A stretch of 64,000 bases of DNA from an uncultured Polyangiaceae bacterium (GCA_964599485.1 CAZRGL010000002.1:2780-66779), one strand, 5' to 3'; positions 3,790-35,206 are shown, numbered from the stretch's first letter. Made by a program: numbers and translations. The notes: generated from the letters alone by a model not told the origin.

Positions 3790-6700
3790 TCAGCCCTGGG
3801 TCGTGCGCCGCAGCCACATGCAGGAGGAAGCTGCGGCTGCGGGGTTGTCTTGAGGGCCGAGCCAGAGATCGCAACGGAGCCAGTGTTGGTCCTGCTCGGT
3901 GAGCTGCAAGGCGCCGCGCAGCTGGGTTCCGCTCGCGTCCGAGAGTTGTTTGGTGAACGTGTCGAGCCAGTATTGCAACCAGGCGCGGCAAGCGTCGGTA
4001 TCGTCCCGGCGACTCGAGCCGAGGTGCATCAATCGAAGATGTTGCGCCAACCGGCCCATTGGGAAGGTGGACCTGAACGAGCGCGCGCCGCTGCGCGTGT
4101 CGGCTTCTGTGGCGATCTGGTCGATGTCGAGCGCCATCAGCCCTCTGCTCTCGAACCCGCGCAGCAGCGATTGCGCTGCTGCAATCGCCCCGCTGCTCTG
4201 GATTGGCGCAGGTTGTCGTCCACTGACGGCGCCTTCGACGTAGGGCATTTTCTCTTCGATGGCGTAGGGCTCGCGCAGGCTGAGCTGCTCGCCAAGCAGG
4301 GCGACATGGCTGCTGGCAGGATCGGCGAAGAAGGCGCGCCAACCGTTTGATGGCGCAGTCTGCAACAGTCGGCGGGCTTCGGGTGTCGTTCCGGCGATGA
4401 GCCCGGCTTGGCTCTGGCGGGCAATGGTGGCGGCCGCCGTGAGCAAGGCGGGATCATCGATCGGATCGGCCATGACGATGGCGCCATAGGGAGTTGATTG
4501 GGCGTAGGCCTGCATCAGCGCCCGGCGCAGGGCCCCGTTGTTTATGACAGCGGCTGGCCCTTTGCTCCCGCAAGCCAAGAGATGGAGGCGACAATCAGCG
4601 TCGGGCATTGCGGCCTGAAGGCTTGCCAATGATCGCCAGCAGCGCTCATGTTGGCGCATGCGGGGATCGAACAGGATCTGATCGAGTGCTTTGGCTACGC
4701 CTCGGGCGATCGTCTGCTTGGCCCAGACGACTTCTTCGCGGTCGATCTTGTTGCGGCCGTGGGAAACGAGCACGTGCAACATGCCTGCGAGGGTGCCGCG
4801 CGCTACGGCGTAGGCCGGGTGATCGGTTGGCACCAGGCGGCTAATGATTGCGCGTCCGTACACTTCGGCGATCTCGTTGGCAGCGCTCAGCGCCGTTGAG
4901 CCCGCTGGCTGGCCAGCTCGCAGCTTGTCGCCCAGCCGCGGCAATAGTGCGGCAAGCTGGGTGGCGAAGTCGTCGATGATGGTCTCCCACCAGCCGAGGC
5001 CGATGTAGCTGAAGTACATCTTGGCCGTGTCGCCGAGTTGCTGGGCCAGCTTGCCGGGGGCCAAGTCTGCAAGACAGGTTGGCGCAAAGAGCTCGTTGCT
5101 CGCAGGTAGCGCGAGCGCTTCGTTTGCCGGCATTGAGAACTGCAGTTGTGGCTTCAGGGTGGCCATTGCGCTGTCGACGTCGGTGACCACGAGTGGCTGC
5201 TCGGTGGCGGCTGCGCCGCTGTGGGCCGTATCGATGGCGCCGAGCACCAGAAGACTCAATGGCAACGGCTCGCGCCTACCGAGTGATTGTCCGGCGCGGT
5301 GTTGCTCGAGTTGCAACCGCATTGGTAGGCGGCTCAGTTCGAAGGCGCGGGGCGGGGCGGCTGCTCGTTGGTGCTGCAACTTGACCAGCAAGCGCGTAAT
5401 CCCGATGCGCAACATGGCTCCGTCCTCGAGGGTTGCCTCCCCCCGGACGGGTTGACCGTCTAGCTCGATGCCAATCCTGCTACCGGCGTCGATGACCTTG
5501 GCGCCGCGTTCATCCACCGACAACATAGCGTGATGGTGCGCCACTAGCGGTCTGCGAAGGACTATGTCGCAATCCTGTGCGCGGCCGATCAATCGGCGCG
5601 GTCCGGCGCCAACCTCGAAGATTCGGTCTGTGGCCTCTTCACGCAATTGCAGGACGGTGCTGCCGGGTTGTTCCGGCTGCTCGGCGAAGGCTTTCGGATC
5701 GAGCAGACGTTGCAGCGCATCTTCGAGCTGCTTGGGTGTGTGCCTTCCGAAGCCCAGCCAGCCCAGGCGGCGGCCGAGGTGTTCCAACTCCGCGTTCGTC
5801 CAGCTCGGGATGCCAATGCGGATGAGCGGGTCGTGCTCAGCGGGACGCTGCGCGCGCAAGAACAGCTTCAGCCAGGGCGCGGCGCGGCGCAGCGAGGTGT
5901 CCGATGGCAAGACGCGCTCGTGCTCGACGTGCCACAGCCTCAAGTCGCCGTCCCGTCCGCCTGAGGCGAGCAGACGTCCGTCGGGAGTAAACGCCAGTGA
6001 CAAGATCACATTGTTGTGGCTGCCGAGGCGCACCAACTTGCCCGGGGTGTTCAGGGCGTGCAGGTGCACCCCGCCTCGACTGTCGCCGATCGCGACCAAG
6101 CCGCCGTCGTCGCTCAGCGCCAGGGTGCTGGCTCGCTCGATGGTAAGATCGCCTTTCACAACGCCCGCTTCAGCGTCGATCGTGATGAGTGTGCTGTTGC
6201 CGTCCAGCATTGCGGTCATGGAAGCACTAGGGGTGATCCGCAGCTGCTCGACATCGGCCGCTGCGTCGCTGAGCTGCCGCAGCTCTTGGCGCGCGCCGAG
6301 CACCCAAAGCGATAGCGCTCCGTCGCCAGCAACAACAGCCATCGCGTCGGCCTCCGCGGCGGGGGCCATCGCTTGGACGGCGCCGCAACCAACAGGATCG
6401 AGCCAGCGTTCGGCGGCGGTATCCCAGATGGTGATCCCCATTTGGCCGGCGACGAATAGCAACCGTCCGTCGCGTGACCACCTCAGCGCGCTTGGGTGTC
6501 GCTTGCCAGCCAACAGCTGGCTGTGGCCCTGATCGATACGCCAGATGCGCACATTGCCGCCGCATGCAGTGGCCACGACGCTTGCATCGGCAGCGATCGC
6601 GGCCGCTTCGAAGGGGCGCTTCGGCTCGACGACGTGCATCACCGCCCTCTGTTTGCCTTCCATCGTGTCGTGACGACGGACCTCAATCAGGTTGCGACCG

Positions 6701-9700
6701 GCGTCGTACATCACACTCGTGACCGAATCGCCATCAGGCGCCAGGCCCACCGCTTGAACCGGGCCGCCGAGATCGCGAATCGAGCGCCCCGCCCAGCTGC
6801 TGCGCAACACGCCTCGAGTCGTGCGATGGGCAATGCGGGTGGCAAGCGCTTGGGCGTCGCGGTGGCGGCGATAACCAGGTACGGCAGTGGTCTCGGCCAG
6901 ATAGAGCAGCGCCCCTGGCAAGTCGCCTAGCTTCAGGGCGCCTTCGGTACGTCCGAGCGCAGCACGGAAACGTTGGTGCTGCAGCTCGAGGACATCACTA
7001 TGGCGCGGTCGTGCCACCATGATGGGCGCAGCCGGGGCGTCGTGCAGGACCTGGACGAGGTGCAGATGTCCGCCGGCGGCCACCAGCACAGGATCGGCAT
7101 CTGCGCAGGCGATTGCATGCACATCGTCGAGCGGCGCGGCCGTCCGCAAACAGCGGCCGCTGTCCACGTGCCACAGCCGCAGCGTGCCGCTGCTGGACCA
7201 GGAAAGGACGTGACGACCGTCGTCACTCATGACAGCCCGGCGCGGCGCTGGTTCTTCGAGGCGGCGCACCAACGATCCGCTGACTGCGTCCCAGATGCTC
7301 AACCGGTAGTGGGATCGCTCGGCGTCCCATCCGCCCGACACAGCGCGACGCGCGTCCGCGGTCAGCGCCACCCAGTCTACGGCCAACTCATGGCGTAGCG
7401 TTCGGGTTACTTTGCCGTCGAGCAGTCGCAGCGTCACCGTGGCGTCGTCACTCGCGCTGGCCAGCAGGCGGCCATCGGCCATTGCGGTCACGCTGTTGAC
7501 CCGTCCGCCGTGCGTGCCGAGGTCCTGGTTCTGACCGGTGTCTACGTCGATCAGCACGATGCGCTTACCGACCGCAGCAGCCAGTTGGTGCTCGTTGCAC
7601 AGCGCCAATCCGGTTACACCGGGCATGTTGATGCGCTGCGAATCGGTTGCCGCGGTCTTCCACACGATGATGGACTCAGCGTTGGCTGCTGCTGCTACCG
7701 AGCCGTTCGTGCTCAAGGCGACGTGCTGTGCGTTGATCTTGGCGCCCTGCAGACTGGTGCCACCGGCCAGCATCCAGACCCGTACGCCATCATGGTGCGC
7801 GCTGGCCACGACACGCTCGTCGCGGCTGGTCGAAAGTGCGTGAGGCGGGCTGGGCAGCTCGGTCAGACGCTCGAGCTGGAAGCCAGCTTTGGTCCCATGA
7901 TAGGGCCCTGCCACCCGCTTCATGGTTGCCTCGGTGCGCGCCGTGCCCGTCAAGGCCCGCACACAACATGCTTGGGCTCGCTTGCGGTCGGCGCGTTCGT
8001 AATGAAGCCAAGCTTGCATCAAATGGGCGCGCCACTCCATTGCGTGCGAGCTGGTTGCCGCACGCATCCGCTCCACCGCTTGCTCGTCAGTGATGTCGCC
8101 GTTTCGCCATTCGATCAGGGCCAAGTTGTAGCTCGCCTCGAGATGATGCGGCTCGGCATCGAGTGCTTGTTTCCACGCTGATAGGGCTTCGCTGTTGCGT
8201 CCGATGTCGAGCATCGATGCGCCACGGTTGTTGTGCACCACCGCTTGCTCCTCGTGGGCTGCTGGATCGGGTCGCGCCTGACGCGCACCGCTGAGCTCGA
8301 CGTAGATGCTGCGGAGTGTGGCAGCGATCTCCAACATGTCGGTTGGTCGTTCGTTGGGGTCCCGCGCAAAACAATGCTGGAGCAGCCCCACCAGCCGCGG
8401 CGGCATCATTGGGATGCGCTCGTCCCAGCCGCCGTCATCGAGGTATTGGCGCAGCGCATGTGGCGCGAGCACGCCGCTCATCCAGCGAATCTCGCCGGTG
8501 AACATGTGAAGGACCGTCACAGCCCAGGACCAAACGTCCGTGCGCCGGGTCAGCTCGACGTCCTTCTTTCGGGCCGCTGCGGCTTGCTCTGGCGAGCAGA
8601 AAACCGGCGTCATGCCCGCATAGCCGGCCATCAGCGTCTTGTGACGGCCGCCCTTGCTCGACTCGGCTGCCGGTTCTGCCAGACGCGTGGTTTTCGCCAA
8701 GCCGAAGTCGGTCACCTTGGCGATGCCAGTCTTGGTGAGCATCACGTTGGCCGGCTTCATGTCCTGATGAATGAGGCCGTGGCGGTGCGCGTGATGCAGC
8801 CCGTAGCTCATCTGCAACGCAACATCGATCATCGAGGCCAGCAGCTGCTGGTCGGTCTTGCTCTTGGCCCGCCGGAATTTGCCTTTGTCGATCCAATCAG
8901 CCAGGCTTCCGCCGTCGACCAGCTCGGCGAAAAGCCAAGGTGCGCCAGAGCGCATGCGCACGTAGTAGCAGTCGACCGTGTGCGGATAGACGCCCAGCCG
9001 GGACCACGCTTCGGCCTCTTCGACGAAACCTTCCACCCCGCCTCGCTCGAGCAGCTCGACGCGCGGGATCTTCAGTGCCAGGTCGATCCCCCAACCAAGG
9101 TGGTGCACGCGGTACACCTTGCCCATCCCGCCGGCGCCAAGCGGCTCGATGACTTCGTATAGATGCCAGTCGCCCCCGTCGTCGTCGACGATTTGCTTGC
9201 GGCCTGCTCCGCCGCCGGCGCTGCCGAGCGACGATGACGGAGCCTGTTCTTTGGGGGGCTCTAACGCTCGGGGTTGGGCGGCGTCTTTTCGTTTCTCGTG
9301 TTCAGCAGCTGGTTCGGCAGCGTTCTTGGGGGGGCGTGTCTCTTCTGCGGCCCGCGCTCGTTTCCTTGCTCTGTGCTCAGCCGCTCGGTCGGCGCTGGCC
9401 TCCCGCCCCGCTTCTGGACCAAAACCCAGCTGCTCCCGACGGCGGAACAAGTAGTTCAGCAGCAGGTTGTTGCGGGTGTCACCGCAGTCGGGCCTGAGCA
9501 CGCAAACCAGCATGAAGTCGCGATCCGCGTCGTCATACCGCCTGTTGCGTGACAGCAGTACGCCTCGATTGATCAGCGCTTGCCAGTAGTCCGGTTGCAA
9601 GCTGATGGCCCGGTCGTAGTCCTCGTAGCTTTGCTCGCTGTCGCGTCCGATTCGCTCGGCCACGTGGCCCCGATAGCACCAGTATGCCGCGCGCTGGGGC

Positions 9701-10671
9701 GCCTGGGTGATCAGCTCGTCGAGGATCTCCCAAGCGGCCTGCATCTGTCCTGCGCGCGCGCAGGCATCAGCCCGTGCATAGTCGGGGTGGTCGATGCCTT
9801 CGACGGGGCTTTCTTTGGCGGGCAACAGCTCGGTGACAGCCTGCAGCACTTCGACGCGGGCTCCAGGAAGATCCCGGAAATGCTGCAATGCGCGCCGAAC
9901 TCCTCGCGCCTCCTGCTCCGTGCTCGGCACCACGCCCAATACCGAGCACGCCTGACCAGCGATCACGGCCATGTACAAGTCCTGAGACGCACACAAGCCA
10001 CGCAGCACCTGCTCGCGATCGTTGCGCTGCCGTGTCAGCAGGGCCTCCACCTTCTTGACCTGATCGCTGCCATCCGAACCGAGGTATCCACAACTTGGAG
10101 CCAGCAGTGTGCGTACGACGTCGTAGCCGGCCGCACCCAGCTCGCGGTCGTCGCCGATTGCCGTCCGCAGATGCTCCGCTACCAACCAGTCGATGATGCG
10201 TTCGACAGCAGGCCGATGGCGAATGCGATCATCGAGCCAAGGTTGACCGAGTGTGACCGCTTCGAGGCCGTAGCGAGGCGCGAGCGCCATGCCAAAGATC
10301 GGAGACAGGGCCGCAGTCGGCGGCTGTTGGCTGAGCATACGGCCGAATGCCTCGTCCAAGTTGCTGACGAAGCCGGGTTCTTGCACGCTGATCAAGCGCT
10401 CGTCGATATCGAGTAGCGAGAAGCCTGACTCGCGGTAGCCGCGGGTCAGCAGGTTTCGCAAATAGGGGCGCGCCCAGCTGACCAGCGGGCGGAACGACGG
10501 CACCCGGCGAACCGTGCGCAGTAGCAGCTCGATGGCCCATAGCGATCCGAAGCTCCCGTCGAGGGCGAAGGGTTTTCCGAGGCGGCGCTCGTGCTCGGCG
10601 CGCTCATCGGGCGACAGCCTGCCGATTTGCTTGCTCGAGCCGCTCTTGTCGCCAGTGTCGGGCCCCGCCAT
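3790..10671 (-). CDS. Giant multidomain protein (2293 aa): N-terminal unknown/TPR region, Ser/Thr kinase, TPR, multiple WD40 repeats, FHA, TssB(VipA)-like segment, divergent TssC(VipB)-like domain
   Basis: The start is set at ATG 10671 (MAGPDTGDK), 4 nt after the stop of the upstream TssC-like gene.
- Kinase (about 8330-9170): LGAGGMGKVY, ALKIP, HQDMKPANVML, DFGLAK, SPEQ.
- FHA (about 5400-5605): IGRAQDCDIVLRRPLVAHHHAMLSVDERGAKVIDAGSRIGIELDG.
- C-terminal tail (3793-5322): PLPLSLLVLGAIDT...QPLVVTDVDSAMATLKPQLQFSMP is TssB-like. ALDQILFDPRMRQHERCWRSLASL, YGAIVMADPIDDPALLTAAATIA and WLQYWLDTF...LRCDLWLGP are colinear with the neighbouring TssC-like protein. Confidence 0.85.
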   Translation of the reverse strand: MAGPDTGDKSGSSKQIGRLSPDERAEHERRLGKPFALDGSFGSLWAIELLLRTVRRVPSFRPLVSWARPYLRNLLTRGYRESGFSLLDIDERLISVQEPGFVSNLDEAFGRMLSQQPPTAALSPIFGMALAPRYGLEAVTLGQPWLDDRIRHRPAVERIIDWLVAEHLRTAIGDDRELGAAGYDVVRTLLAPSCGYLGSDGSDQVKKVEALLTRQRNDREQVLRGLCASQDLYMAVIAGQACSVLGVVPSTEQEARGVRRALQHFRDLPGARVEVLQAVTELLPAKESPVEGIDHPDYARADACARAGQMQAAWEILDELITQAPQRAAYWCYRGHVAERIGRDSEQSYEDYDRAISLQPDYWQALINRGVLLSRNRRYDDADRDFMLVCVLRPDCGDTRNNLLLNYLFRRREQLGFGPEAGREASADRAAEHRARKRARAAEETRPPKNAAEPAAEHEKRKDAAQPRALEPPKEQAPSSSLGSAGGGAGRKQIVDDDGGDWHLYEVIEPLGAGGMGKVYRVHHLGWGIDLALKIPRVELLERGGVEGFVEEAEAWSRLGVYPHTVDCYYVRMRSGAPWLFAELVDGGSLADWIDKGKFRRAKSKTDQQLLASMIDVALQMSYGLHHAHRHGLIHQDMKPANVMLTKTGIAKVTDFGLAKTTRLAEPAAESSKGGRHKTLMAGYAGMTPVFCSPEQAAAARKKDVELTRRTDVWSWAVTVLHMFTGEIRWMSGVLAPHALRQYLDDGGWDERIPMMPPRLVGLLQHCFARDPNERPTDMLEIAATLRSIYVELSGARQARPDPAAHEEQAVVHNNRGASMLDIGRNSEALSAWKQALDAEPHHLEASYNLALIEWRNGDITDEQAVERMRAATSSHAMEWRAHLMQAWLHYERADRKRAQACCVRALTGTARTEATMKRVAGPYHGTKAGFQLERLTELPSPPHALSTSRDERVVASAHHDGVRVWMLAGGTSLQGAKINAQHVALSTNGSVAAAANAESIIVWKTAATDSQRINMPGVTGLALCNEHQLAAAVGKRIVLIDVDTGQNQDLGTHGGRVNSVTAMADGRLLASASDDATVTLRLLDGKVTRTLRHELAVDWVALTADARRAVSGGWDAERSHYRLSIWDAVSGSLVRRLEEPAPRRAVMSDDGRHVLSWSSSGTLRLWHVDSGRCLRTAAPLDDVHAIACADADPVLVAAGGHLHLVQVLHDAPAAPIMVARPRHSDVLELQHQRFRAALGRTEGALKLGDLPGALLYLAETTAVPGYRRHRDAQALATRIAHRTTRGVLRSSWAGRSIRDLGGPVQAVGLAPDGDSVTSVMYDAGRNLIEVRRHDTMEGKQRAVMHVVEPKRPFEAAAIAADASVVATACGGNVRIWRIDQGHSQLLAGKRHPSALRWSRDGRLLFVAGQMGITIWDTAAERWLDPVGCGAVQAMAPAAEADAMAVVAGDGALSLWVLGARQELRQLSDAAADVEQLRITPSASMTAMLDGNSTLITIDAEAGVVKGDLTIERASTLALSDDGGLVAIGDSRGGVHLHALNTPGKLVRLGSHNNVILSLAFTPDGRLLASGGRDGDLRLWHVEHERVLPSDTSLRRAAPWLKLFLRAQRPAEHDPLIRIGIPSWTNAELEHLGRRLGWLGFGRHTPKQLEDALQRLLDPKAFAEQPEQPGSTVLQLREEATDRIFEVGAGPRRLIGRAQDCDIVLRRPLVAHHHAMLSVDERGAKVIDAGSRIGIELDGQPVRGEATLEDGAMLRIGITRLLVKLQHQRAAAPPRAFELSRLPMRLQLEQHRAGQSLGRREPLPLSLLVLGAIDTAHSGAAATEQPLVVTDVDSAMATLKPQLQFSMPANEALALPASNELFAPTCLADLAPGKLAQQLGDTAKMYFSYIGLGWWETIIDDFATQLAALLPRLGDKLRAGQPAGSTALSAANEIAEVYGRAIISRLVPTDHPAYAVARGTLAGMLHVLVSHGRNKIDREEVVWAKQTIARGVAKALDQILFDPRMRQHERCWRSLASLQAAMPDADCRLHLLACGSKGPAAVINNGALRRALMQAYAQSTPYGAIVMADPIDDPALLTAAATIARQSQAGLIAGTTPEARRLLQTAPSNGWRAFFADPASSHVALLGEQLSLREPYAIEEKMPYVEGAVSGRQPAPIQSSGAIAAAQSLLRGFESRGLMALDIDQIATEADTRSGARSFRSTFPMGRLAQHLRLMHLGSSRRDDTDACRAWLQYWLDTFTKQLSDASGTQLRGALQLTEQDQHWLRCDLWLGPQDNPAAAASSCMWLRRTTQG

Positions 10672-10675
10672 GCGG

Positions 10676-11992
10676 CTAATCCTTTTGGAGCTTTCCTTCG
10701 AGGGTGATGGTGAGCGGGCCGCCGCGCTCGGCCCAGTTGGGCTTGAGCGCGAGCTCGAAACGATAGCCGCGCGGGCCCGTGTCCTGGACCTCGATGTGGG
10801 CTTCGTAGAAGGGACGCCAACCGATGGCGAACCCACCTGGCTGGCGAGCGCCGACAACATAGTCAGAGAGCCATCGCTGCAGCCCGGTGCTCACCGAGAA
10901 GCGGTCCTTCCAGCAACCGATGTTCTCGCGGTGCAACACTTTGATCATTTGCCCGATGCGCGTTGCGACCAACAAGCTCGGCAGCTCGGCGTTGCGTGGA
11001 TCGTTAGCGGTCGAGGGGTCGAGCAGGCAGGGTGTCTCGGCCACGAGCGCGCCTTCGCCTTCGGTGCTGGGCTTCAGTGTCATGATGCCCAAGTGCGCCA
11101 GGGCAGCACGTTGCTCGTCAGCGAGCACTGCTTCGAGCGGAGTGATGTCCTGCAATTCGGGAGCGAAGGGCACCGCGCCCGGCAACCGAAGTCCCCAGCC
11201 TGTCTCCTCGAAGCTCGCCGCCAACCGTATCCCCACAGCAAGCATGGCGCTGCCCCAGAGCAGGTCCTCTGGGCAGTCAATGCGCTCGTCGTGCCCGTCG
11301 TCATCAGCGGTGTAGGGCATTCGCAGCAGCACCCGGCCGAGAACCAAAGCGCAATGACGAGCCTCTGGTTTCTGCCGCAGCGCTTGCCATCGCACGCGGG
11401 CGGCTTCGTGCACTTCGAGCTGTTGTTGTTCGCCGATGACCCCGGCGTCTCCCAGTTCATGGACCGGCTCGGCTCCAACCAAAACGGGGTCCACAGTCGC
11501 CACAAAAGGAGCGTGGGCCGCTGCTGCTGTAGTGAAGCATTCGGAAAGCAGCCCCATGTCTTGGGGGGAAGGACCGAAGGTGAAGTCCGCCATGACCAAG
11601 CCGAAGGGGGTGCCGCCAAAACTGCCGAACTCACCGGTGTGGAGAAGGCTGTACAAGCCGGCTCTTTCGATGCGTGGTGCGTCCTCGAAGTCCATCAGCA
11701 GATCTTCTTGCGAGATGCTCAGCATCTGGACACGAACTCGGCGATCCTCGGTTGCAACAGTGCTCAGCCAATGCAGCCCGCGCCAACGCGCTTCGAGAGC
11801 CTGCAGGGTGGGGTGGTGCAGGATGAGATCGAGCTGCCGAGCGATACGTCGATCCAGACTGGCGATAGCGGCGGCTACGTCGTCGAAGGCTTCGTGGGCT
11901 TCGCGGACGCCTTCGAGCAAGGCCCCCACCAGCACGTGCTCGGCCAGCGCGAGGTCGCTGAGTGTCGGTTGGTCCTTGTGTCGCTTGTCCAT
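10676..11992 (-). CDS. tssC: T6SS contractile-sheath large-subunit (TssC/VipB/EvpB)-like protein
   Basis: Motifs typical of TssC:
- RQLDLILHHPTLQALEARWRGLHWL
- LSISQEDLLMDF
- GEFGSFGGTPFGLVMADFTF
- AAAAHAPFVAT
- RWQALRQKPEARHCALVLGRVLLRMPY
- LQRWLSDYVV
- YRFELALKPNW
The ATG at 11992 overlaps the upstream stop (TGATG). A TTG at 11995 is an alternative start. Confidence 0.8.
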   Translation of the reverse strand: MDKRHKDQPTLSDLALAEHVLVGALLEGVREAHEAFDDVAAAIASLDRRIARQLDLILHHPTLQALEARWRGLHWLSTVATEDRRVRVQMLSISQEDLLMDFEDAPRIERAGLYSLLHTGEFGSFGGTPFGLVMADFTFGPSPQDMGLLSECFTTAAAAHAPFVATVDPVLVGAEPVHELGDAGVIGEQQQLEVHEAARVRWQALRQKPEARHCALVLGRVLLRMPYTADDDGHDERIDCPEDLLWGSAMLAVGIRLAASFEETGWGLRLPGAVPFAPELQDITPLEAVLADEQRAALAHLGIMTLKPSTEGEGALVAETPCLLDPSTANDPRNAELPSLLVATRIGQMIKVLHRENIGCWKDRFSVSTGLQRWLSDYVVGARQPGGFAIGWRPFYEAHIEVQDTGPRGYRFELALKPNWAERGGPLTITLEGKLQKD

Positions 11993-13170
11993 CAACCCAT
12001 GCCGATGGCGGTTTCGAGGTGCGTGCGAATCGCGCGACGTAGACGCACGGACATATCGGTGAACGCTTCGCGATCGGGTAAGCCCACTTCGATGGTCGCG
12101 ACCGCGCCCCAGAGGTGGCTCGGGAGTGCCGAAATCATCCTCGGGTAGAACTCAGCGCTCCTCTTGGGCTCCGTCGGGGAGTACGCCAGCAACCACAAGA
12201 ACATCGTTGCCACCGCTTCGAAGAGGGCCCCCTGCGCCGGCCCATGCCGCTCGGCGAGTGAGGCAGCGATCGTCTTGCCTGGCTCCATGACCGGGTACAT
12301 CAAGCTGTCGCTCACATCCTTGCCGAGATCTCCCGTCAGCGGTGCGAATTCAGGCAAGGAGATGCCGAGGGCCGTCGTGATTTCGTTGGCAAGAGTCAAC
12401 TGCGCTTTGGTTGCGACCTGCATTTCTGGATTGCATCGCACGCTCGATAGCGTCGACAGACACTGGGCCAGATGATTGATGAGTAGGCGGGCGCCGGCGT
12501 TGCTGTCGGGGATGGCCGTGAGATCTACACTTGGTATCTGTACGCGCTCAGCCTGGCTTGAGGCAGCATCGTCCTGGGCCTCGAGGTTGGGCGCTCCGGT
12601 CGAAACAGCGTCTTGTCGTCTGACAACAGGGTCTTGTTTCCTGAGGAAGTCATAAGCTTCGCCGTACGCGTCGAAGATCAGCTTGCTTGCGTTGCGACCT
12701 GCCTCGGCGACGATTTCGTCGATTCGTTTCTGAAACGACTTGGGCAATCCGCCAGCCGCAGCACTGCCGCGCAGCGCTTCGGCGATGGCGTCGAGCATTT
12801 CACCCCCGCCCGAGCCGACGACGTCGACGAAACAGAGCTTGAGAGCGCACTCGAGCAACGCCAGGTGATCATTGCCGAGCTTGGCGACGGGCTGCTTCAA
12901 TGCTGGGCCAGCCGTCGTGAGCACGTACTTGAGCGCCAGAGCTGACCCTCGGCCGTGGTCGCTCGTGGGCTCGAACAGCGGCGGAAGCTCGGCGCCGATG
13001 ACGTCGCCCAGGTGTACGGCTTTTGCAAACCAAACGCCGCTGAGCTCGAGCTCGGAACGGCCGTGGAAACTGGCTGCCCAAGCGGTCCATTGGGCCAAAC
13101 GCCAAACCAGCGCTCGGCTGCTGATCCCCATGGTCTCGAGCTTGGCCGACAGGATGCGATCGTTCATCAT
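11992..13170 (-). CDS. Hypothetical protein (392 aa), co-oriented and translationally coupled with the TssC-like gene
   Basis: A complete ORF (MMNDRILSAKLETMG...) whose stop overlaps the next gene's start (TGATG at 11990-11994). I recognise no domain. Confidence 0.6.
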   Translation of the reverse strand: MMNDRILSAKLETMGISSRALVWRLAQWTAWAASFHGRSELELSGVWFAKAVHLGDVIGAELPPLFEPTSDHGRGSALALKYVLTTAGPALKQPVAKLGNDHLALLECALKLCFVDVVGSGGGEMLDAIAEALRGSAAAGGLPKSFQKRIDEIVAEAGRNASKLIFDAYGEAYDFLRKQDPVVRRQDAVSTGAPNLEAQDDAASSQAERVQIPSVDLTAIPDSNAGARLLINHLAQCLSTLSSVRCNPEMQVATKAQLTLANEITTALGISLPEFAPLTGDLGKDVSDSLMYPVMEPGKTIAASLAERHGPAQGALFEAVATMFLWLLAYSPTEPKRSAEFYPRMISALPSHLWGAVATIEVGLPDREAFTDMSVRLRRAIRTHLETAIGMG

Positions 13171-13218: not shown

Positions 13219-15330
13219 TCAACCATAGAGCCAGCCTCGTTGATGGGCGTGATTTCGAAACGAGTCAGCAAGCTTGCGGTAGGCGCCGGCGATGGCACTG
13301 AGGCGCGTCCGCGACCAACGTCCGGCGGGCTGCTCGTCGCGGGCTCTTTTTCCCATTGCGGTGAAGAAAGCGTCATCTGGCATCGTTTCTTGGCCAGCAG
13401 GTATGAACTTGATCACCTCATCCATGAACGCTGCCGCTCGCTCGATGACGTTGAGCGCCACGATGCCTTCGTCTCGGTCGAGGCCGTCCAGCGACGCGGG
13501 CGTCTGTTTGGCGAATCCTTCGGCGAAACTGAAGAACTGCCCCGCGTCGATCAGCTCCGAAGGCGTATCTCCGGCGCTGTACTGGATGGGGCCATCGCCG
13601 CTCGTTGCCGCCATGTCGGCTTTGCTGATTCGAAACGTGAATGTTCTGGTTGCGGCGCCCTCATTGCGGCATTCGTACTGCACCACCACGTCGGCCTCCT
13701 CGGTGGTGATGGATTGTTTGCGACCCTGGACTGGGTAGTTGCGAAGGTTGAGATAGACGCTGCATTCGGCCAGTGACCGGGCGCGCAAGGGTTGGGTCGT
13801 GCCGTCAGCGTCGTCTGGCTCGGCCTCGTCCGCCTCTAGCTCGACGCGCGCTCGACCCATGACCTTGCCGTCTTGGACCATCATCGGTTGGGCAAACAAG
13901 CCTTGATCACCGCTGGCGCGGAACACCTTGTCTGCACTGTTCGCCAAGCGCACCACGGCCGCCCCATTCTGCATGCTGCAAGCGAGCACCACCCCGCGAA
14001 CGGGGATCGCGACGAGCAAGACCTTCGAGTCGAGCTTTTGGTGCAACACCTTCAATGCGCTCGGCACGAGCAACGCCTCGGTCGCGTGCTCACCGTGTAG
14101 GCTCGCCACACGTGGCGGATCGCCAACTACTTCGAGTCGCGGCGATTGCTTTTCGGCGAGCATGCGTGCCCCTTGGTCGACGAGCTCGTCGAAGCTGCGC
14201 GTGCCCAAGGTTTTTGCCGTCGCAAGATGGTGACCGTTGGCTGTCTCGGCAGCCAAGCAAACCATGGGGCTGACGATTGGGTGGGTTGGATCGGTGGGTG
14301 GGGCGAGCGGTCGAGTCAGCACAGAAGCCGTCAAGCTGGGATGATCTTGGCGCAGGATGTGAGGCTGATAGTCGCTGATCACGGCGCTGTTCAACGCAGC
14401 TCGACTTACCGGTGCGGCTGTGGCCAGCTGATCGTGGATGACTGCGGAGCTTGCCGACGCGATGCTGGCAGGGTCAGGCTTGGCAGGGTCAGGCTTGGCG
14501 GTGTCGGGTTTGGCAGCGTCTGGTTTGAGGGAGCCGATGGAAATGGGGCCACCCGGTTGCTGGACGGGCGCGCTGTTGGCTGGTTGGGAGGCTGGTCTGT
14601 CCACCCCCTTGAGCGTCGCGTCACTGAAGGCATGCGCTACCGCCTTGGGCGGGATGGGACCGGCACAGTTGAAGACGATCCCGTCGATGGGCGCGATGCG
14701 TAACTGCTCGAACAGCGTCTTGCCGTCCACTTTGGTGTGCGGCGGAACCGAGGCGCCATGCCGGGCGCGAAAAGCCTGGTAGGTGTCCTCGGCGGTGAAC
14801 ACGGCGGCGAGGCGGCGGCCCTGGTTGTCGGGCGCCATCATCAGCTGACTGCCCTGCCAGCAGAAGCGGTAGCCCGGGTAGTTGCGCAGCAGCTCGAACT
14901 GATTGTCGCGCTTGGAGTTGCCTTGCAGAATCTCTTCGACTCGCACCGCCTGGCCGAATTCCGCAAGCAAAGGCAGATCCTGAGCGTAGAGCGCCATGCC
15001 ATGGGGACTGGCCAAATCGAGGCCCACGCCGCGCGCTCCGCCCGGGATGTTACGGGCTAAGGATCCGCCCGCCGTGACGAAGAAGTTGTCGCCAATGGTC
15101 AGCTTGTTGGCCTGTGCGTACGCATCCATGGCCTGTTTGCTGGAGAAGGCGCACACCCACCACTCGCCCGCCGAGCCGGGGAACATCCACAGCCCCGACG
15201 ACCCATCGGCGGCGATACGGCTGGGCACGTGCCAGCTCGGGTGCTGCACCAGGTGACGAAACGCTTCCGAGTGGGAGCTACTGCCCTGCTTGTGGGCCGC
15301 CATGGCGTGCACGATTTGGGGTTCGGTCAT
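13219..15330 (-). CDS. Hypothetical protein (703 aa) with two N-terminal SseB-like repeats and a (KPDxA)n linker
   Basis: This is the real 5' part of the 1489-aa track ORF. The start is ATG 15330 (MTEPQIVHAMAAHKQG). Two similar modules (WHVPSRIAADGSSGLWMFPGSAGEWWVCAFSSKQAMDAY and YRFCWQGSQLMMAPDNQGRRLAAVFTAEDTYQAF) are reminiscent of the SseB family. The SseB assignment is tentative. Confidence 0.65.
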   Translation of the reverse strand: MTEPQIVHAMAAHKQGSSSHSEAFRHLVQHPSWHVPSRIAADGSSGLWMFPGSAGEWWVCAFSSKQAMDAYAQANKLTIGDNFFVTAGGSLARNIPGGARGVGLDLASPHGMALYAQDLPLLAEFGQAVRVEEILQGNSKRDNQFELLRNYPGYRFCWQGSQLMMAPDNQGRRLAAVFTAEDTYQAFRARHGASVPPHTKVDGKTLFEQLRIAPIDGIVFNCAGPIPPKAVAHAFSDATLKGVDRPASQPANSAPVQQPGGPISIGSLKPDAAKPDTAKPDPAKPDPASIASASSAVIHDQLATAAPVSRAALNSAVISDYQPHILRQDHPSLTASVLTRPLAPPTDPTHPIVSPMVCLAAETANGHHLATAKTLGTRSFDELVDQGARMLAEKQSPRLEVVGDPPRVASLHGEHATEALLVPSALKVLHQKLDSKVLLVAIPVRGVVLACSMQNGAAVVRLANSADKVFRASGDQGLFAQPMMVQDGKVMGRARVELEADEAEPDDADGTTQPLRARSLAECSVYLNLRNYPVQGRKQSITTEEADVVVQYECRNEGAATRTFTFRISKADMAATSGDGPIQYSAGDTPSELIDAGQFFSFAEGFAKQTPASLDGLDRDEGIVALNVIERAAAFMDEVIKFIPAGQETMPDDAFFTAMGKRARDEQPAGRWSRTRLSAIAGAYRKLADSFRNHAHQRGWLYG
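14467..14526. repeat. 15-bp in-frame tandem repeat x4 (two perfect copies, two degenerate)
   Basis: ggcagggtcaggctt occurs twice, followed by ggcggtgtcgggttt and ggcagcgtctggttt. On the minus strand these encode KPDAAKPDTAKPDPAKPDPA. Confidence 0.8.
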
Positions 15331-15432
15331 CAAGCGCGCTCCGTTGGTGGTTCTACCAGTCTGGGGCGCAGGATTGTGCCTTGTTATCGGTCTAGTAGAC
15401 GCCAGCTCGAGTTTCGCCAACCCTTGGCGAAC
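15331..15432. promoter_or_regulatory. Divergent intergenic region, presumed to hold the promoters for both arms of the sheath/ClpV/kinase locus
   Basis: This is a 102-nt gap between the minus-strand start at 15330 and the plus-strand start at 15433. I could not recognise a specific -35/-10 or -24/-12 element. Confidence 0.3.
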
Positions 15433-18400
15433 ATGAGTGCCTACTTGAGGATCGCCGCCAGCGAGAAAGGGGGGGCCGCGGGCCAGATCGCACGCTTTGA
15501 TGAGGAAGGCGGCGTCGCGGTGCTTGCGGATGGGACCGGCGGAGCGGCAGGGGAGGCCATGGCTCGGGCTGCAGTCGAACCGGCGTTGAAGACGCTCCTG
15601 GCCGAGGGCTCGGTCGAGAAAGCCTTCGCGTCTGCCCACCAAGCCGCTTGCACGCAGAGTGAGGATGAAGGCGCTGGCGCGAGCTTCATCGCGGCTCAGA
15701 TTGACCGGACCGGCACGTTGGTGGTCGGTCATCTCGGCAATGTGCGCGTATACATCGCGCGCAAGACGAACAGGCGCCGGGGTCTTCCGAAACCGCCGGC
15801 ACCGCTCTTCTGTCCCCCTGTTCAGGTCGGCTCGGTCAAGCCGATCGAGACGGCCATGAGCATGGTCTGCCTCAGTCGCGATCACAGCGCGGTTTGCGAT
15901 ATGGTCGAGGGCGGGCATTTGTCGGCGGAGGATGGGCGCAAGCATCCGCTGCGCGGGCGGGTGAGCAAGGGCTTGCGGGCCGGTCCGCTGACGCCTCCAA
16001 CGGTGACGCACATGCGGCTGTTTCCGGATGATCGCGTGCTGCTCTGCTCGGATGGGCTGTGGGATGCAGTGAGCGATCGCGACATGCTTGCTGCGCTGGC
16101 TGAGCACCATTTTGCAGACGACGCTTGTGAGGCATTGGCCGAGCGGGCAGGGAGCAAGTGCTCCTTTGCGGCCGTAGTCATCGATTGTTTTCCCGATCGC
16201 GAGCGCGACGAAGCGCGACGCAATTTGCAGCGCGGACACAAAGCGCAACGCAAGAAACGGGCGAGCAAGAAATCCGGCCGCGAAAAACAGAAGCGTCCCA
16301 GCAGCGAGCGACCCCGTAGCGAGCAGCCCCGTAGCAACAAGCGCCGCAGCAGTGAGCCGCCGAAAAACGGCGACATCATTCGGCGAATGGGGCGCAATCT
16401 CACCGCGCTGGCCATAGCTGGCAAGCTCGATCCGGTCATCGGGCGAAAGCGTGAGGTGCAGCAGCTCGCACAAGCACTCGTGGCGCGGCGCAAAGCCAAC
16501 GCGGTTCTCATCGGTCCGCCCGGCGTAGGCAAGACCGCCATCGTCGAAGGGCTGGCCTTGCAAATGGCAACTGGTGGACTGGGTGATCGTTTTGCCGACA
16601 AGCGTATCGTCGAGATGTCGATGGGCGCGCTGGTCGCAGGCACCAAATATCGCGGCCAGTTCGAAGAGCGACTGCAGGAAGTCATCAGGATTGCCGAGGA
16701 TGATCCAGAGCTGGTCATCTTCATGGACGAGCTGCACACGGCCATGGGCGCCGGTGCGACTAGCGGTAGCGCCACCGATGCTGCGGATTTGCTCAAGCCG
16801 GCGCTGTCGCGCGGCAGCATGCGGCTCATCGGCGCCACTACGACCGAGGAGTACCAGAAGTACATCGCCCGCGACGCTGCCTTCGAACGCAGATTCATCG
16901 TCATCGACGTCAAAGAGCCTTCGGTCGGGCACACCATCGAGATTCTCCAGGGGCTGCGCCCTTCCTTCGAGAAGCACTACCAAGTGCAAATCGTCGATGA
17001 GGCCTTCGAGGCCGCGGCAACGCTTTCCAAGCGCTACATTCCGGGGCGGTACTTGCCCGACAAAGCAATCGATCTGATCGATCGCGCCTGCGCCCGTCTG
17101 CTGGTGCCGCTCACGCCCACCCCGGGCGACGGTAGTACGCTTCGGCGTGATCACATCGTCAAGCTCGTGGCCGACATGTGCGATGTGGACATCGAGTTGA
17201 TCGGCCGCGATGTGCGCGAAGCACGGGAGCGGGTGGGCGAGCTGCTGAGCTACCTCACCGCGCGCCTCTTCGGGCAAGACGCGGCGATGGGTGTGGTGGC
17301 CCGGCAGCTCAAGCGCGCTTACGGCGGACTCAAGGATCCGAAACGTCCCATCGCTTCGTTCCTGTTTGCGGGACCGACCGGTGTCGGCAAGACCGAGACC
17401 GCCAAGGTCGTTTCCGAGTTCTTGTTCGGGGACCGCGATCGGGTTCTGCGGATCGACATGTCGGAATACGAGAGCCGCTGGGCCGTCTCGCGGCTGATTG
17501 GGGCACCGCCGGGCTACATCGGTCACGACGAGGAAGGGCAGCTGACGGGTCCCATGCTCCGGCAAGGGGCGCGGGTCGTGCTCTTCGACGAAATCGAAAA
17601 AGCCCATCCCGACGTGCTGCTGGTGTTGCTGCAGATTCTCGACGAGGGGCGGCTGACCGACTCGCACGGCCGTGTTGCTTCCTTTCACGAAGCGGTCATC
17701 GTCATGACCTCCAACCTGCTGCAGTCTGGCCCGGTTGCGCGCAAAGCCAAGCAGCTGGGCTTCGCATTGCCCAAGAAGGGCGCGCAGTCGGAAGAGGCCG
17801 AGGAACAGGTCGAGGATGACAGCGCGGCGCGCAGCGAGCTCGCCAAACAGCTGCGCCCCGAGCTAGTCGGTCGAATCGGCGCCGTGGTGACCTTCTCGTC
17901 GCTTTCGCCCGAGGCGGCGAAAGCCATCGTGAACAAATGTTGCAACAGCGCCCTGCAGCGACTGCAAGCGCAAGGCGTGGCGCTGCAGTTGCCGGATGGT
18001 TTCCAACAGCGTGTGCTCGAACGTTTGGGCGATCTGCGCTTCGGGGCGCGCATGGTCGAGCGTTTGGTCGACGAAGAGGTCGGCAAGCTGCTCGATCGGT
18101 CCCAGCCTAGTGCTGGCCGGTCGGATGCCAGCATGGGAGCGAGCATGCACGCCAGCATGCGAGGCTCAGCACGAAACGACGTGGCCATGTTGGCGCTCGA
18201 GCTGCCGGAGGGGGTGGATGCCGACGAGGCCAAGCTTCATGCGTTGGTCGCCAAGGTGTGCATCGGCGCGCAAGCTGCCCAGGTGCGCCATGTGGATGCG
18301 TGTGAGGGCCGCGTCGTCGTTCTCGCTGCGACCTTGCGCGCTGCTCTGGCCATCGCGCGGCGCCATGACAGCTTGGATGGCAAAGGGCTGCGACGCTTGG

Positions 18401-18648
18401 TGCATCGGGGCCGGGTGCAGCTCGACGAACAAGGCAATCCTCGCGGCGTCGGCTTGCATGTGCTCGAGATGCTTCGCGGTGTGCTTGCTGAGCATCGAGA
18501 GACGGCGGGCCAGTTGGTGCTCTCTTCAGCTGCTCACGAGGCGCTCGACGCCGACGCGCGCGCCGGCTTCGTGCCGCTCGAGAGCGAGACCTTGCGGGCA
18601 ATGGGTAGCGACATCAGCTTGTGGACGGACGCAGGGAGGACGGCGTGA
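15433..18648 (+). CDS. PP2C (PPM) phosphatase fused to a ClpV/ClpA-type double AAA+ unfoldase, with an unknown C-terminal extension of about 250 aa
   Basis: Start at ATG 15433 (MSAYLRIAASEKGG).
- PP2C: VLADGTGGAAGEAMA, VGHLGNVRVY, LLCSDGLWDAV.
- AAA+ D1: LDPVIGRKREV, GPPGVGKTAIVEGLA, KYRGQFEERL, VIFMDELH, LIGATTTEEY.
- AAA+ D2: GQDAAM, FAGPTGVGKTE, RIDMSEY, LIGAPPGYIGH, VVLFDEIEKAHPDV, ILDEGRLTD.
I see no long coiled-coil M domain between D1 and D2. Confidence 0.85.
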   Translation: MSAYLRIAASEKGGAAGQIARFDEEGGVAVLADGTGGAAGEAMARAAVEPALKTLLAEGSVEKAFASAHQAACTQSEDEGAGASFIAAQIDRTGTLVVGHLGNVRVYIARKTNRRRGLPKPPAPLFCPPVQVGSVKPIETAMSMVCLSRDHSAVCDMVEGGHLSAEDGRKHPLRGRVSKGLRAGPLTPPTVTHMRLFPDDRVLLCSDGLWDAVSDRDMLAALAEHHFADDACEALAERAGSKCSFAAVVIDCFPDRERDEARRNLQRGHKAQRKKRASKKSGREKQKRPSSERPRSEQPRSNKRRSSEPPKNGDIIRRMGRNLTALAIAGKLDPVIGRKREVQQLAQALVARRKANAVLIGPPGVGKTAIVEGLALQMATGGLGDRFADKRIVEMSMGALVAGTKYRGQFEERLQEVIRIAEDDPELVIFMDELHTAMGAGATSGSATDAADLLKPALSRGSMRLIGATTTEEYQKYIARDAAFERRFIVIDVKEPSVGHTIEILQGLRPSFEKHYQVQIVDEAFEAAATLSKRYIPGRYLPDKAIDLIDRACARLLVPLTPTPGDGSTLRRDHIVKLVADMCDVDIELIGRDVREARERVGELLSYLTARLFGQDAAMGVVARQLKRAYGGLKDPKRPIASFLFAGPTGVGKTETAKVVSEFLFGDRDRVLRIDMSEYESRWAVSRLIGAPPGYIGHDEEGQLTGPMLRQGARVVLFDEIEKAHPDVLLVLLQILDEGRLTDSHGRVASFHEAVIVMTSNLLQSGPVARKAKQLGFALPKKGAQSEEAEEQVEDDSAARSELAKQLRPELVGRIGAVVTFSSLSPEAAKAIVNKCCNSALQRLQAQGVALQLPDGFQQRVLERLGDLRFGARMVERLVDEEVGKLLDRSQPSAGRSDASMGASMHASMRGSARNDVAMLALELPEGVDADEAKLHALVAKVCIGAQAAQVRHVDACEGRVVVLAATLRAALAIARRHDSLDGKGLRRLVHRGRVQLDEQGNPRGVGLHVLEMLRGVLAEHRETAGQLVLSSAAHEALDADARAGFVPLESETLRAMGSDISLWTDAGRTA

Positions 18649-19946
18649 AGGTCACGCTCACAGTCATCGAAGGGCCCAATTTGGGCCGCGAATTCGCCTA
18701 CGAGCAACGGGATCGCTTTCTGGTGGGGCGGACGCCAGCGGCGCATCTGTGCGTCTCACGAGATCGCTTCTTTTCGCGGCATCATTTCTTCGTCGAGGTC
18801 AATCCGCCCAACGTCTACCTGGTCGATTTACACAGCACCAACGGCACCAGCGTCAACAGTCGCAAGAACAAGGTCGAGGAGGCCACGCTCGAGCATGGCG
18901 ACATCATCATCGGGGGCGAAACGAAGCTCCGGGTGACCATCGACGACGGCGTGGACGAGTCGGCTGCCGCTGAGGCAAACGAGTCGCGCGAGCAGGTCTG
19001 TTGTCTGAAGTGTGGCAAACATGCCGAACGCGAACGGGCGCGCTCGAGCTCGGAGTCCGTGACCTTCATTTGCCAAGGTTGCCAGGAGAACCTGCGCGGC
19101 CAGCCGATCTTGCCGCAGGGTTATCGTGTGGTTCGTGAGCTCGGTCGCGGCAGCATGGGAAGCGTGTATCTGGCCGAGGACGGTGCCGGCGCGCAGCGGG
19201 CGATCAAGCTCGTCATGCCGAATGCGGCCTTGTCGGCTAAGGTGCGCAACCAGTTCCTCGAACAATCCAGAGCGCAAGCGCGCCTCGACCACCCGCGCAT
19301 CGTGCGCGTCTACGGCGTCGAGCAGCCGCGCGAGGGGGTGTTCTGCGTCGTGATGGAGCACATCGATGGACAGGCGCTCTCGAAACTCATCGCCAATCAG
19401 AACAAGCTCCCAGCTCACAAGGTCGTGCTGATTGCAGCCCAGCTCCTCGAAGGGCTCGACTATGCCCACGGGCGCGCGATGGTTCATCAGAACATCAAGC
19501 CCGCCAACATTCTGCTCGCTCCCGATCGGGGCGAAGCGTCGGGCGGCCTCGCTGTCAAGCTGGCCGATTTCGGCCTGGCGCAGACCTACGAGCTGACCGG
19601 CGCGAGCGGTTTTGCGCGCCTGGACGAAGTGGACGAGTCGCTCGGCTACAAGGCCCCTGAGCAGATCATCGACTTTCGCGGCGTCGATCCGAGGTCGGAT
19701 CTGTACGCTGTTGCGGCGGTCGGCTACCGGATGCTCTGCGGTGAATTGCCCTACGCGCTCGATGCGGGCCGCGATCCCTTCTTGGCGCTGCTCGAAGACG
19801 AAATCGTGCCGCTGAGGAAGCGAGATCGGACAGTGGATTCTGCGTTGGCCGCTGTGATCGAGCGGGGCCTGGCCCGACGCCCCGCCGACCGCTACAGCTC
19901 TGCGGCGAAGATGCGTGAAGCACTGTTGGCTGCCGCGCTCCGCTGA
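18621..19946 (+). CDS. FHA domain, CxxC...CxxC zinc ribbon and a Ser/Thr kinase-like domain in which the catalytic Asp is replaced (HQN): predicted pseudokinase
   Basis: - FHA: FLVGRTPAAHLCVSRDRFFSRHHFFVEVNPPNVYLVDLHSTNGTSVN.
- Zn ribbon: CCLKCGK...FICQGCQ.
- Kinase: GRGSMGSVYLA, AIKLV, MVHQNIKPANILL (aac codon at 19491-19493), DFGLAQ, APEQ.
An alternative start, GTG 18645, overlaps the upstream stop (GTGA). Confidence 0.85.
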   Translation: MDGRREDGVKVTLTVIEGPNLGREFAYEQRDRFLVGRTPAAHLCVSRDRFFSRHHFFVEVNPPNVYLVDLHSTNGTSVNSRKNKVEEATLEHGDIIIGGETKLRVTIDDGVDESAAAEANESREQVCCLKCGKHAERERARSSSESVTFICQGCQENLRGQPILPQGYRVVRELGRGSMGSVYLAEDGAGAQRAIKLVMPNAALSAKVRNQFLEQSRAQARLDHPRIVRVYGVEQPREGVFCVVMEHIDGQALSKLIANQNKLPAHKVVLIAAQLLEGLDYAHGRAMVHQNIKPANILLAPDRGEASGGLAVKLADFGLAQTYELTGASGFARLDEVDESLGYKAPEQIIDFRGVDPRSDLYAVAAVGYRMLCGELPYALDAGRDPFLALLEDEIVPLRKRDRTVDSALAAVIERGLARRPADRYSSAAKMREALLAAALR

Positions 19947-35196: not shown

Positions 35197-35206
35197 GGCT
35201 TGCTCC

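Follow-up and report, generated by a model that had tools for sequence, protein, structure and literature searches.

We analysed a 64,000-nucleotide stretch of DNA from an uncultured Polyangiaceae bacterium (GCA_964599485.1, CAZRGL010000002.1:2780-66779; hereafter the window) and found that one of its genes, gene E, encodes a 1071-amino-acid (aa) protein in which a PP2C-like domain is followed by a linker, the two AAA+ modules (D1 and D2) of a Clp/Hsp100 unfoldase and a cyclase-fold domain. It is a member of a small and hitherto undescribed Hsp100 subfamily whose terminal domains derive from signalling proteins. A preliminary description of the window had read gene E as a ClpV ATPase from a type VI secretion system (T6SS) whose substrate-recognition domain is replaced by a phosphatase, so that dephosphorylation would be coupled to unfolding or disassembly. 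We give a probability of about one in two to a different reading, in which gene E would be a phospho-signal-directed, probably ClpP-coupled unfoldase, with the PP2C-derived domain as its receptor and a neighbouring TssC-like protein as a candidate client. The genes around gene E are lettered A to F, and the coordinates of all features are collected in Table 1.

The reading frame of gene E runs uninterrupted from an ATG at 15433 to a stop codon at 18646-18648. A public protein (P0001) is identical to its product, and the gene callers behind it also chose the ATG at 15433. Five contigs, drawn from four or more metagenome samples, encode the exact 1071-aa product, and this identity excludes a frameshift or a chimeric assembly at 16190-16370, the interval in which the preliminary description had considered that the gene might split in two; the junction between the N-domain and the AAA+ region is also common to the family. 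It is shared by an ortholog (P0002; 1057 aa, 65% identity) with an identical domain layout and by 11 more long proteins. A long antisense open reading frame (ORF) at 13219..17688(-) is gene D (13219..15330) continuing through gene E in antisense.

All motifs that had been quoted for gene E were located (DGTGG, LLCSDGLWD and both Walker A/B pairs), as was the Lys/Arg/Ser-rich linker. This basic, Ser-rich form of the linker occurs only in the window and in P0002, and the rest of the family has a shorter, Ala/Pro-rich one. The double Clp/Hsp100 AAA+ architecture was confirmed by Pfam, with AAA (aa 358-487), AAA_lid_9 (498-560), AAA_2 (638-816, 177.9 bits) and ClpB_D2-small (824-887) in the expected order. 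The tail, described earlier as uncharacterised and about 250 aa long, measures 184 aa after D2-small and could be assigned as a linker of about 27 aa and a cyclase-fold domain.

A PPM/PP2C-family domain is indeed present at the N-terminus. A hidden Markov model (HMM) built from 22 stand-alone PP2Cs matched gene E over aa 21-241 with 101.7 bits, the aligned span ending before motif 1 and before motif 11, and Pfam SpoIIE matched aa 180-241 with 32.3 bits against a cutoff of 25. The profile of the stand-alone proteins matched the structures of tPphA, PstP, Stp1 and PppA with E-values of 1e-45 to 1e-67, as expected of bona fide PP2Cs. The PP2C matches of gene E itself in the PDB were at about 1e-8, and NCBIfam Stp1_PP2C gave 68.5 bits (cutoff 230).

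In a MAFFT alignment with the stand-alone PP2Cs, gene E kept motif 2 (ADGTGG; D33 and G34) and motif 8 (SDGLWD; D207 and G208), together with the DHS and HPLR flap region. Motif 1 (NED to GQI), motif 6 (GDSR to GNVR, Asp to Asn) and motif 11 (DN to SF) were lost, and the third-metal Asp was gone. The full metal-ligand set, formed by the Asp residues of motifs 1, 2, 8 and 11, is therefore incomplete, with those of motifs 2 and 8 present and those of motifs 1 and 11 absent. Motif 6 is followed by an insertion of about 30 aa in gene E and of about 23-24 aa in P0002, whose N-domain shows the same catalytic-motif losses. The Asp residues of motifs 1 and 11 help to hold the binuclear metal centre of PPM enzymes, so with their loss the N-domain of gene E is expected to have little or no phosphatase activity. 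With these two residues and the third-metal Asp lost, the proposed coupling of dephosphorylation to unfolding is doubtful.

Across the family, all PP2C catalytic motifs were kept in 3 of 16 sequences (P0151, P0153 and the fragment P0149), and some members were without even the Asp of motif 2 or motif 8. A core of G102, R105, Y107, R110, P128, D150, V158, D200, R201 and W210 was invariant in all 16, and H100 nearly so. That this core is invariant while the catalytic motifs erode suggests that the domain is kept for a non-catalytic purpose; judged from the alignment, the fold is conserved in the family and catalysis has been given up repeatedly.

We weighed these results against the alternative that gene E is an active phosphatase-unfoldase, working through the Asp residues of motifs 2 and 8 as an eraser and remodeller that opposes the FHA-kinase independently of any T6SS. 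The retained D33/G34 and D207/G208 and the translationally coupled kinase gene described below speak for it, as do the three members with every PP2C motif, from which the ancestral fusion was probably active. The NED, DN and GDSR Asp residues, however, are lost in gene E and its ortholog, further ligands are lost in most family members, and the kinase encoded by gene F is without its catalytic Asp. We consider this alternative unlikely.

The two AAA+ modules of gene E both carry Walker A and B motifs and pore-loop Tyr residues. All NCBIfam Clp scores lay far under the cutoffs: ClpB gave 593.6 bits, ClpA 575.7 bits (cutoff 993.15) in a single continuous match over aa 285-887, and TIGR03345 (VI_ClpV1) 518.6 bits (cutoff 884.95). 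In a tblastn comparison with plasmid genes, identity to gene E was 46% for ClpB, 42% for ClpK, 40% for ClpA and 36-39% for TssH. The PDB matches were ClpC (490 bits, 43% identity), ClpC1 (478 bits), ClpB (466 bits) and ClpA (419 bits). Of the main Clp classes, TssH/ClpV scored lowest for the core. A neighbour-joining tree (697 columns, 100 bootstraps) was computed for 13 family members, 8 ClpC, 3 TssH and one each of ClpB, ClpA and ClpK. The 13 fusion proteins were monophyletic (100%), as were the 3 TssH proteins (100%), with no nesting either way; the fusion family falls outside the TssH clade, and its exact sister group is left unfixed by this unrooted, distance-based tree.

The connector between the modules was measured from LPDKAID to GQ. 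It is 71 aa long in gene E, compared with 66 aa in ClpA, 123 aa in ClpC, 188 aa in ClpB and 152-193 aa in TssH, and across the fusion family the connector between the D1 lid and D2 spans 63-78 aa. An [LIV]-G-[FL] tripeptide is the ClpP-docking element of Clp ATPases. At this position the LGF of gene E aligns on the VGF of Bacillus subtilis ClpC and the IGL of ClpA; [LIV/P/R]GF is found in 11 of the 13 fusion proteins, in a loop that varies otherwise, and ClpB, ClpK and the three TssH proteins compared have no such tripeptide. The Pfam scan of gene E returned neither Clp_N (PF02861) nor UVR (PF02151). Connector length and LGF settle the class on sequence grounds: the motor is ClpA/ClpC-like, not ClpV, and ClpP docking via LGF is predicted.

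The identification of gene E as ClpV was thus not upheld, given its lowest similarity to TssH, its place outside the TssH clade, the 71-aa connector and the ClpP-type loop. What survives of the earlier view is that a PP2C-derived domain takes the N-terminal, substrate-selecting position on a double Clp ATPase, and that the association of the locus with a TssC-like gene is conserved in one close ortholog.

The tail was modelled with AlphaFold2 (AF2). The single sequence gave an unusable model (predicted local distance difference test, pLDDT, 44), and a 10-sequence family alignment gave a pLDDT of 87.7 and a predicted TM-score of 0.81, with pLDDT below 50 for the first 20 or so residues and a mean of 73 at residues 21-30. 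In a Foldseek search of the PDB with the tail model, the best 50 matches were all class III adenylyl/guanylyl cyclases (TM-score about 0.55-0.62), led by Rv1900c and Ma1120. The family tail profile matched the cyclase homology domain (CHD) of Rv1900c with an E-value of 4.9e-5 and 3mr7 with 3.7e-4; Pfam Guanylate_cyc had no match in gene E. At the metal-binding Asp positions gene E has E923 and G959. Most family tails are degenerate at these positions too, and the metal motifs D-I/V-V-x-S-T and GDG are intact in those of P0150 and P0153. On the strength of the model, the tail of gene E is a degenerate class III cyclase-fold domain.

The family of gene E came to light only when a profile of three N-domain sequences was run in an exhaustive HMMER search. 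The matches were long proteins (850-1057 aa) with a full N-domain match at their own N-termini. Thus the search for the same fusion in other genomes, which the preliminary description had suggested, revealed a family of at least 13 clusters with a PP2C-like N-domain and Clp D1-D2, 10 of which also have the tail in the alignment. Word-based searches found only stand-alone PP2Cs with the N-domain alone and no homologs with the tail alone. A degenerate DNA pattern for the family-specific motif K-x-N-A-L-L-V-G-x-x-GVGKT hit at least 119 loci in genome contigs, and none of the matches listed had a PP2C-like domain. Among these matches, two PP2C-less Clp-like ATPases of 751 and 776 aa (L044 3957-7974 and L108 2648-6651) are 45-48% identical to the AAA+ part of gene E, and in both loci an overlapping gene for a Ser/Thr kinase comes next; that kinase in L108 has an FGE-sulfatase-like region at its C-terminus. 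This pairing suggests that the association of the AAA+ protein with a kinase may be older than the PP2C fusion.

Seven family neighbourhoods were inspected. Gene F, which encodes an FHA domain, a four-Cys motif and a Ser/Thr kinase, has its GTG start overlapping the stop codon of gene E (GTGA at 18645-18648). A gene F ortholog lies directly 3' of the fusion gene in L001 (P0002), L008 (P0151), L009 (P0145) and the P0156 contig as well as in the window, and the 4-nt stop/start overlap between the fusion gene and the FHA-kinase gene was seen in five lineages; the gene F orthologs are 47-66% identical where compared. In a sixth lineage (L007, P0153) the ortholog is 7 kb off, and a gene for a 1699-aa kinase-WD40 protein adjoins. 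Giant kinase-WD40 genes adjoin the locus of the fusion gene in two lineages (the window and L007). On this gene order, what accompanies the fusion family as its conserved operon partner is not a T6SS but an FHA-(Cys4)-Ser/Thr kinase whose gene is translationally coupled.

The catalytic loop of gene F reads VHQNIKPAN, the HRD Asp being replaced by Asn (HQN), which is pseudokinase-like. The orthologs in L001 and L007 keep HRD, and that in L009 has HRA. A conserved CxxC...CxxC between the FHA and kinase domains of gene F resembles a zinc ribbon. In the P0151/P0153 subclade, in which the PP2C motifs are intact, genes for an ECF-type sigma-70 factor and for an 86-aa product stand beside the fusion gene (L007 11624-12648 and L008 1128-2131). 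The 866-aa P0003 (L002 1-12601) is tailless and has a very degenerate PP2C-like domain (LADATR, HVGVLR); around it are genes for Hsp70, GrpE, two DnaJ-like proteins and three large unknown proteins.

Upstream of gene E, a divergent operon runs D-C-B-A. Gene B is an orphan paralog of the T6SS sheath large subunit TssC, and lies 3.4 kb from gene E on the opposite strand, an arrangement conserved in L001. The product scored 254.2 bits against TIGR03355, below the cutoff of 271.5, and its best PDB match was TssC (5urw, E-value 3e-61), aligned from TssC residue 67; homology to TssC at the level of the fold is clear. Compared with canonical TssC, the protein lacks about 30-40 aa at the N-terminus; its identity to the L001 ortholog is 52%. 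An ALLEGV sequence at aa 24-30, kept in L001, is faintly like the ClpV-binding motif LLDEII of VipB. In L001 the TssC-like domain forms the last 420 aa of a 1106-aa ORF (951-4271(-)), the N-terminal extension of which contains a copy, 29% identical, of residues 82-317 of the giant kinase encoded by gene A; gene A and the TssC-like protein may thus have an uncharacterised domain in common.

The stop codon of gene C overlaps the start of gene B by 4 nt. Genes C and D had no family in Pfam, NCBIfam, the PDB, PADLOC or PHROG, save the weak SseB-N match of gene D, which also contains a Pro/Lys repeat of the KPDxAKPD type; a search of genome and metagenome contigs with the gene D alignment found no loci. 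Gene A, the last gene of the operon, encodes a kinase with an HQD catalytic loop and an intact DFG; it has an ortholog in L001 and is predicted to be active. The order of genes A to F is kept in L001 with 46-67% identity, and the flank beyond gene F differs. This conservation beside a divergent flank argues that genes A to F are a functional block.

The preliminary description had assigned the locus to a T6SS. A sheath-gene neighbour is present as it implied, and the adjacency of gene E and the orphan TssC paralog is real and conserved. The locus is nevertheless not a T6SS cluster, and gene B has no TssB in view within the window. No TssB, Hcp, VgrG or TssA/E/F/G/J/K/L was found in the 64 kb; a phmmer search with 12 Ralstonia T6SS proteins against all window ORFs of at least 50 aa returned only genes B and E at an E-value of 1 or less, and Pfam scans of about 50 window ORFs revealed no further T6SS family. 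Among the family neighbourhoods, the TssC-like gene, gene C and gene D are linked to the fusion only in the window and L001, and five other family loci have no TssC-like gene.

These results bear on the possibility that gene E is a ClpV-type sheath-recycling ATPase in which PP2C replaces the TssC-binding N-domain and couples dephosphorylation to disassembly. The conserved TssC-like gene in the divergent operon, its remodelled N-terminus, which fits an altered recognition, and the combination of FHA, kinase and PP2C parts, which recalls the T6SS threonine-phosphorylation pathway, are all consistent with it. We nevertheless hold it to be improbable, because the 64 kb contain no TssB, Hcp, VgrG, baseplate or membrane-complex genes, the core has the lowest TssH score, no M-region of TssH length and a ClpP-type loop and falls outside the TssH clade, the TssC-like gene is absent at five other loci, and the PP2C catalytic motifs are degenerate.

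The same neighbourhood might be read as a system that serves a multicellular-type bacterium in phage defence or conflict, with kinases, FHA, WD40, an AAA+ effector and a sheath-like scaffold. Its mix of Ser/Thr kinase, FHA, WD40, AAA+ and cyclase-like parts resembles themes in a survey of conflict systems (PMC7159879), and PADLOC gave generic kinase and AAA matches. These PADLOC matches were at domain level only and pointed to no specific system, however; genes B, C and D had no PHROG matches, no mobile-element signs were seen, and the architecture of gene E is not described in the survey. We regard such a role as very improbable.

By its domains and motifs, gene E encodes a complete ClpA/ClpC-type threading motor of the Clp/Hsp100 kind, predicted to be hexameric, in which the PP2C-derived domain takes the place of Clp_N and a class III cyclase-fold domain has been added C-terminally. 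In the reading that we favour, the PP2C-derived domain would sit above the D1 pore. Of the four classical acidic metal ligands it has lost two, and the third-metal Asp as well; it would therefore serve mainly to bind phospho-Ser/Thr proteins or the FHA-kinase partner and not as an efficient phosphatase. Clients marked by local kinases, among them the predicted active kinase of gene A, would be bound and drawn through D1 and D2, and the unfolded chains would most probably be passed to ClpP for degradation, by analogy with the phospho-arginine/ClpC-ClpP system. According to a passage in PMC5506225, which cites Trentini 2016, phospho-arginine marks proteins for ClpC-ClpP via the ClpC N-domain. 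In this lineage the most obvious client would be the TssC-like protein or its polymer.

Several observations weigh against this reading. With D33 and D207 retained, residual phosphatase activity of gene E is possible, and three family members look, from their motifs, fully active as PP2Cs. The LGF might merely have been inherited as a relic, the 64-kb window contains no clpP gene and none adjoins any family member examined, and the 157-aa domain after D2-small lies near the ClpP face and could hinder ClpP docking. The kinase partner encoded by gene F, with HQN for HRD, may be inactive. The linkage to a TssC-like gene is known from two related genomes only (the window and the Polyangiaceae contig L001), and P0003 adjoins Hsp70, GrpE and DnaJ genes and is without a kinase gene, which hints at a chaperone rather than a protease.

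Some of these points would suit a ClpP-independent remodeller or disaggregase of the ClpB, ClpG or ClpK kind, gated by phospho-signalling and the cyclase-like domain, with LGF as a relic. The high similarity to ClpB and ClpK, the chaperone genes beside P0003, the extra C-terminal domain near the ClpP-facing side and the lack of a linked clpP in any member favour this view. Against it, gene E has no M-domain for coupling to Hsp70, and GF is kept in 11 of 13 members amid a variable loop and is missing in ClpB, ClpK and TssH. Such a remodeller seems to us rather improbable, and we retain the phospho-directed, probably ClpP-coupled unfoldase. A more specific version of it would be a phospho-Ser/Thr degron machine, in which the pseudophosphatase reader of a ClpP-coupled Hsp100, an FHA-kinase or pseudokinase and a giant WD40 kinase control a non-secretory, TssB-less polymer of the TssC paralog; this version is speculative and, as a whole, doubtful.

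Table 1. Features of gene E and its neighbourhood (nucleotide positions counted from the first letter of the window)
Feature	Position (nt)	Strand	Position (aa)	Description or basis
Gene A	3790..10671	-		about 2290 aa; TPR, non-RD Ser/Thr kinase, TPR, WD40 propellers, FHA
Gene B, orphan TssC-like sheath large-subunit paralog	10676..11995	-		439 aa; Pfam VipB 205 bits, VipB_2
Gene C	11992..13170	-		392 aa; no family; 46% identity to L001 ortholog
Gene D	13219..15330	-		703 aa; weak SseB-N match; 58% identity to L001 ortholog
Divergent intergenic gap, gene D/gene E	15331..15432	.		102 bp
Gene E	15433..18648	+		1071 aa; PP2C-like domain, linker, Clp D1, D2, cyclase-fold domain
PP2C/PPM-like N-domain, catalytic residues degenerate	15433..16182	+	1-250	PP2C HMM, MAFFT, family motif table
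LADGTGG			31-37	
LLCSDGLWD			203-211	
Low-complexity basic Ser-rich (K/R/S-rich) linker	16183..16377	+	251-315 (start approximate by composition)	composition (R14, K9, S8 among 66), family alignment
AAA+ D1 and lid	16378..17142	+	316-570	Pfam AAA, AAA_lid_9; alignment to ClpC, ClpB
D1 Walker A, GPPGVGKT	16513-16536	+	361-368	
D1 KYRG pore loop	16645-16656	+		
D1 Walker B, VIFMDELH	16714-16737	+	428-435	
D1-D2 connector	17143..17343	+		short, without M-domain or coiled-coil insertion
AAA+ D2 and D2-small	17344..18093	+	638-887	AAA_2 177.9 bits, ClpB_D2-small
D2 Walker A, GPTGVGKT	17371-17394	+	647-654	
D2 GAPPGYIG pore loop	17500-17523	+		
D2 Walker B, VVLFDEIEKA	17575-17604	+	715-724	
LGF tripeptide at ClpP-docking-loop position	17755..17763	+	775-777	
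Disordered Ser/Met/Ala-rich spacer	18094..18174	+	888-914	AF2 pLDDT
Class III nucleotidyl-cyclase-homology (CHD) fold domain, degenerate	18175..18645	+	915-1071	
Gene F	18645..19946	+		FHA, four-Cys motif, Ser/Thr kinase; Pfam FHA, Pkinase

Elsewhere in the window, genes for FGE-sulfatase-domain proteins are paired with Ser/Thr kinase genes at 47003-50443 and 59420-62177. Six or more Pkinase genes occur in the window, together with a gene for an FHA-sigma54 activator (27994-29328 (-)), as is typical of Myxococcota-like genomes. A 1542-aa fusion of a BcrAD/BadFG ATPase and a CoA-enzyme-activase (DUF2229) is encoded at 38278-42906 (+), adjoined by two acyl-CoA dehydrogenase genes (33982-36733), and is unrelated to gene E.

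Full-text literature searches did not turn up an account of any PP2C-Clp fusion or any orphan TssC operon. Compared with known systems, gene E is like ClpC and ClpA in that both of its AAA+ modules have pore loops and intact Walker A/B motifs and that an [LIV]GF stands at the ClpP-loop position; its connector is of ClpA length, and its closest sequence match is ClpC (43%, 490 bits). The ClpC N-domain reads a phospho-mark, which is phospho-arginine in the account given in a passage of PMC5506225. Unlike ClpA and ClpC, gene E is without Clp_N and without the M-domain/UVR of ClpC and has a PP2C-like N-domain and a cyclase-fold C-domain instead; it reaches 576 bits against the ClpA cutoff of 993, its family forms a separate deep clade, and its ClpP binding is a prediction.

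With ClpV/TssH, gene E shares a double AAA+ Hsp100 gene near a TssC-family gene. The ClpV N-domain binds TssC or TagJ through an alpha-0 helix and a groove (PMC4239648), and in gene E, too, a sheath subunit would be recognised at the N-terminal domain. Unlike it, gene E has no Clp_N alpha-0 helix or groove, scores 519 against 885 bits with 36-39% identity, has a connector of 71 aa compared with 152-193 aa and a ClpP-type loop, and lies in no T6SS cluster. A Clp ATPase near a TssC gene should therefore not automatically be annotated as ClpV, and an orphan TssC-like gene without TssB or other T6SS parts suggests that a sheath protein has been reused outside secretion.

The N-domain resembles the PPM/PP2C phosphatases tPphA, PstP, Stp1 and PppA in its homologous fold of about 220 aa, its DGxGG and SDGLWD motifs and its DHS/HPLR flap, and in having an FHA protein and a Hanks-type kinase as partners. 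It differs from them in its fusion to an unfoldase, the loss of the motif 1, motif 11 and third-metal Asp residues, the insertion of about 30 aa and its score (68.5 against 230 bits). Repeated loss of catalysis with retention of the fold makes the family a natural, testable series from enzyme to pseudoenzyme. The tail shares with the class III cyclases Rv1900c and Ma1120 its fold (AF2 and Foldseek) and its profile matches, and P0150 and P0153 keep the metal motifs; unlike these cyclases, gene E has its metal Asp residues replaced (E923, G959) and carries the domain at the C-terminus of an Hsp100.

The TagF-PppA fusion of Agrobacterium and the PpkA/PppA/Fha threonine-phosphorylation pathway offer a parallel, with a PP2C that is joined to another module and acts together with FHA and a kinase near sheath genes. 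The partner in gene E, unlike TagF, is an AAA+ unfoldase, no TagF or T6SS core genes accompany it, and the phosphatase motifs are degenerate. Phospho-arginine with ClpC is, to our knowledge, the one well-studied case of a Clp N-domain that reads a phospho-mark. Hsp100 clients are chosen via N-domains, so a PP2C-derived N-domain in this position would link Hanks-type Ser/Thr signalling directly to bacterial protein unfolding or degradation.

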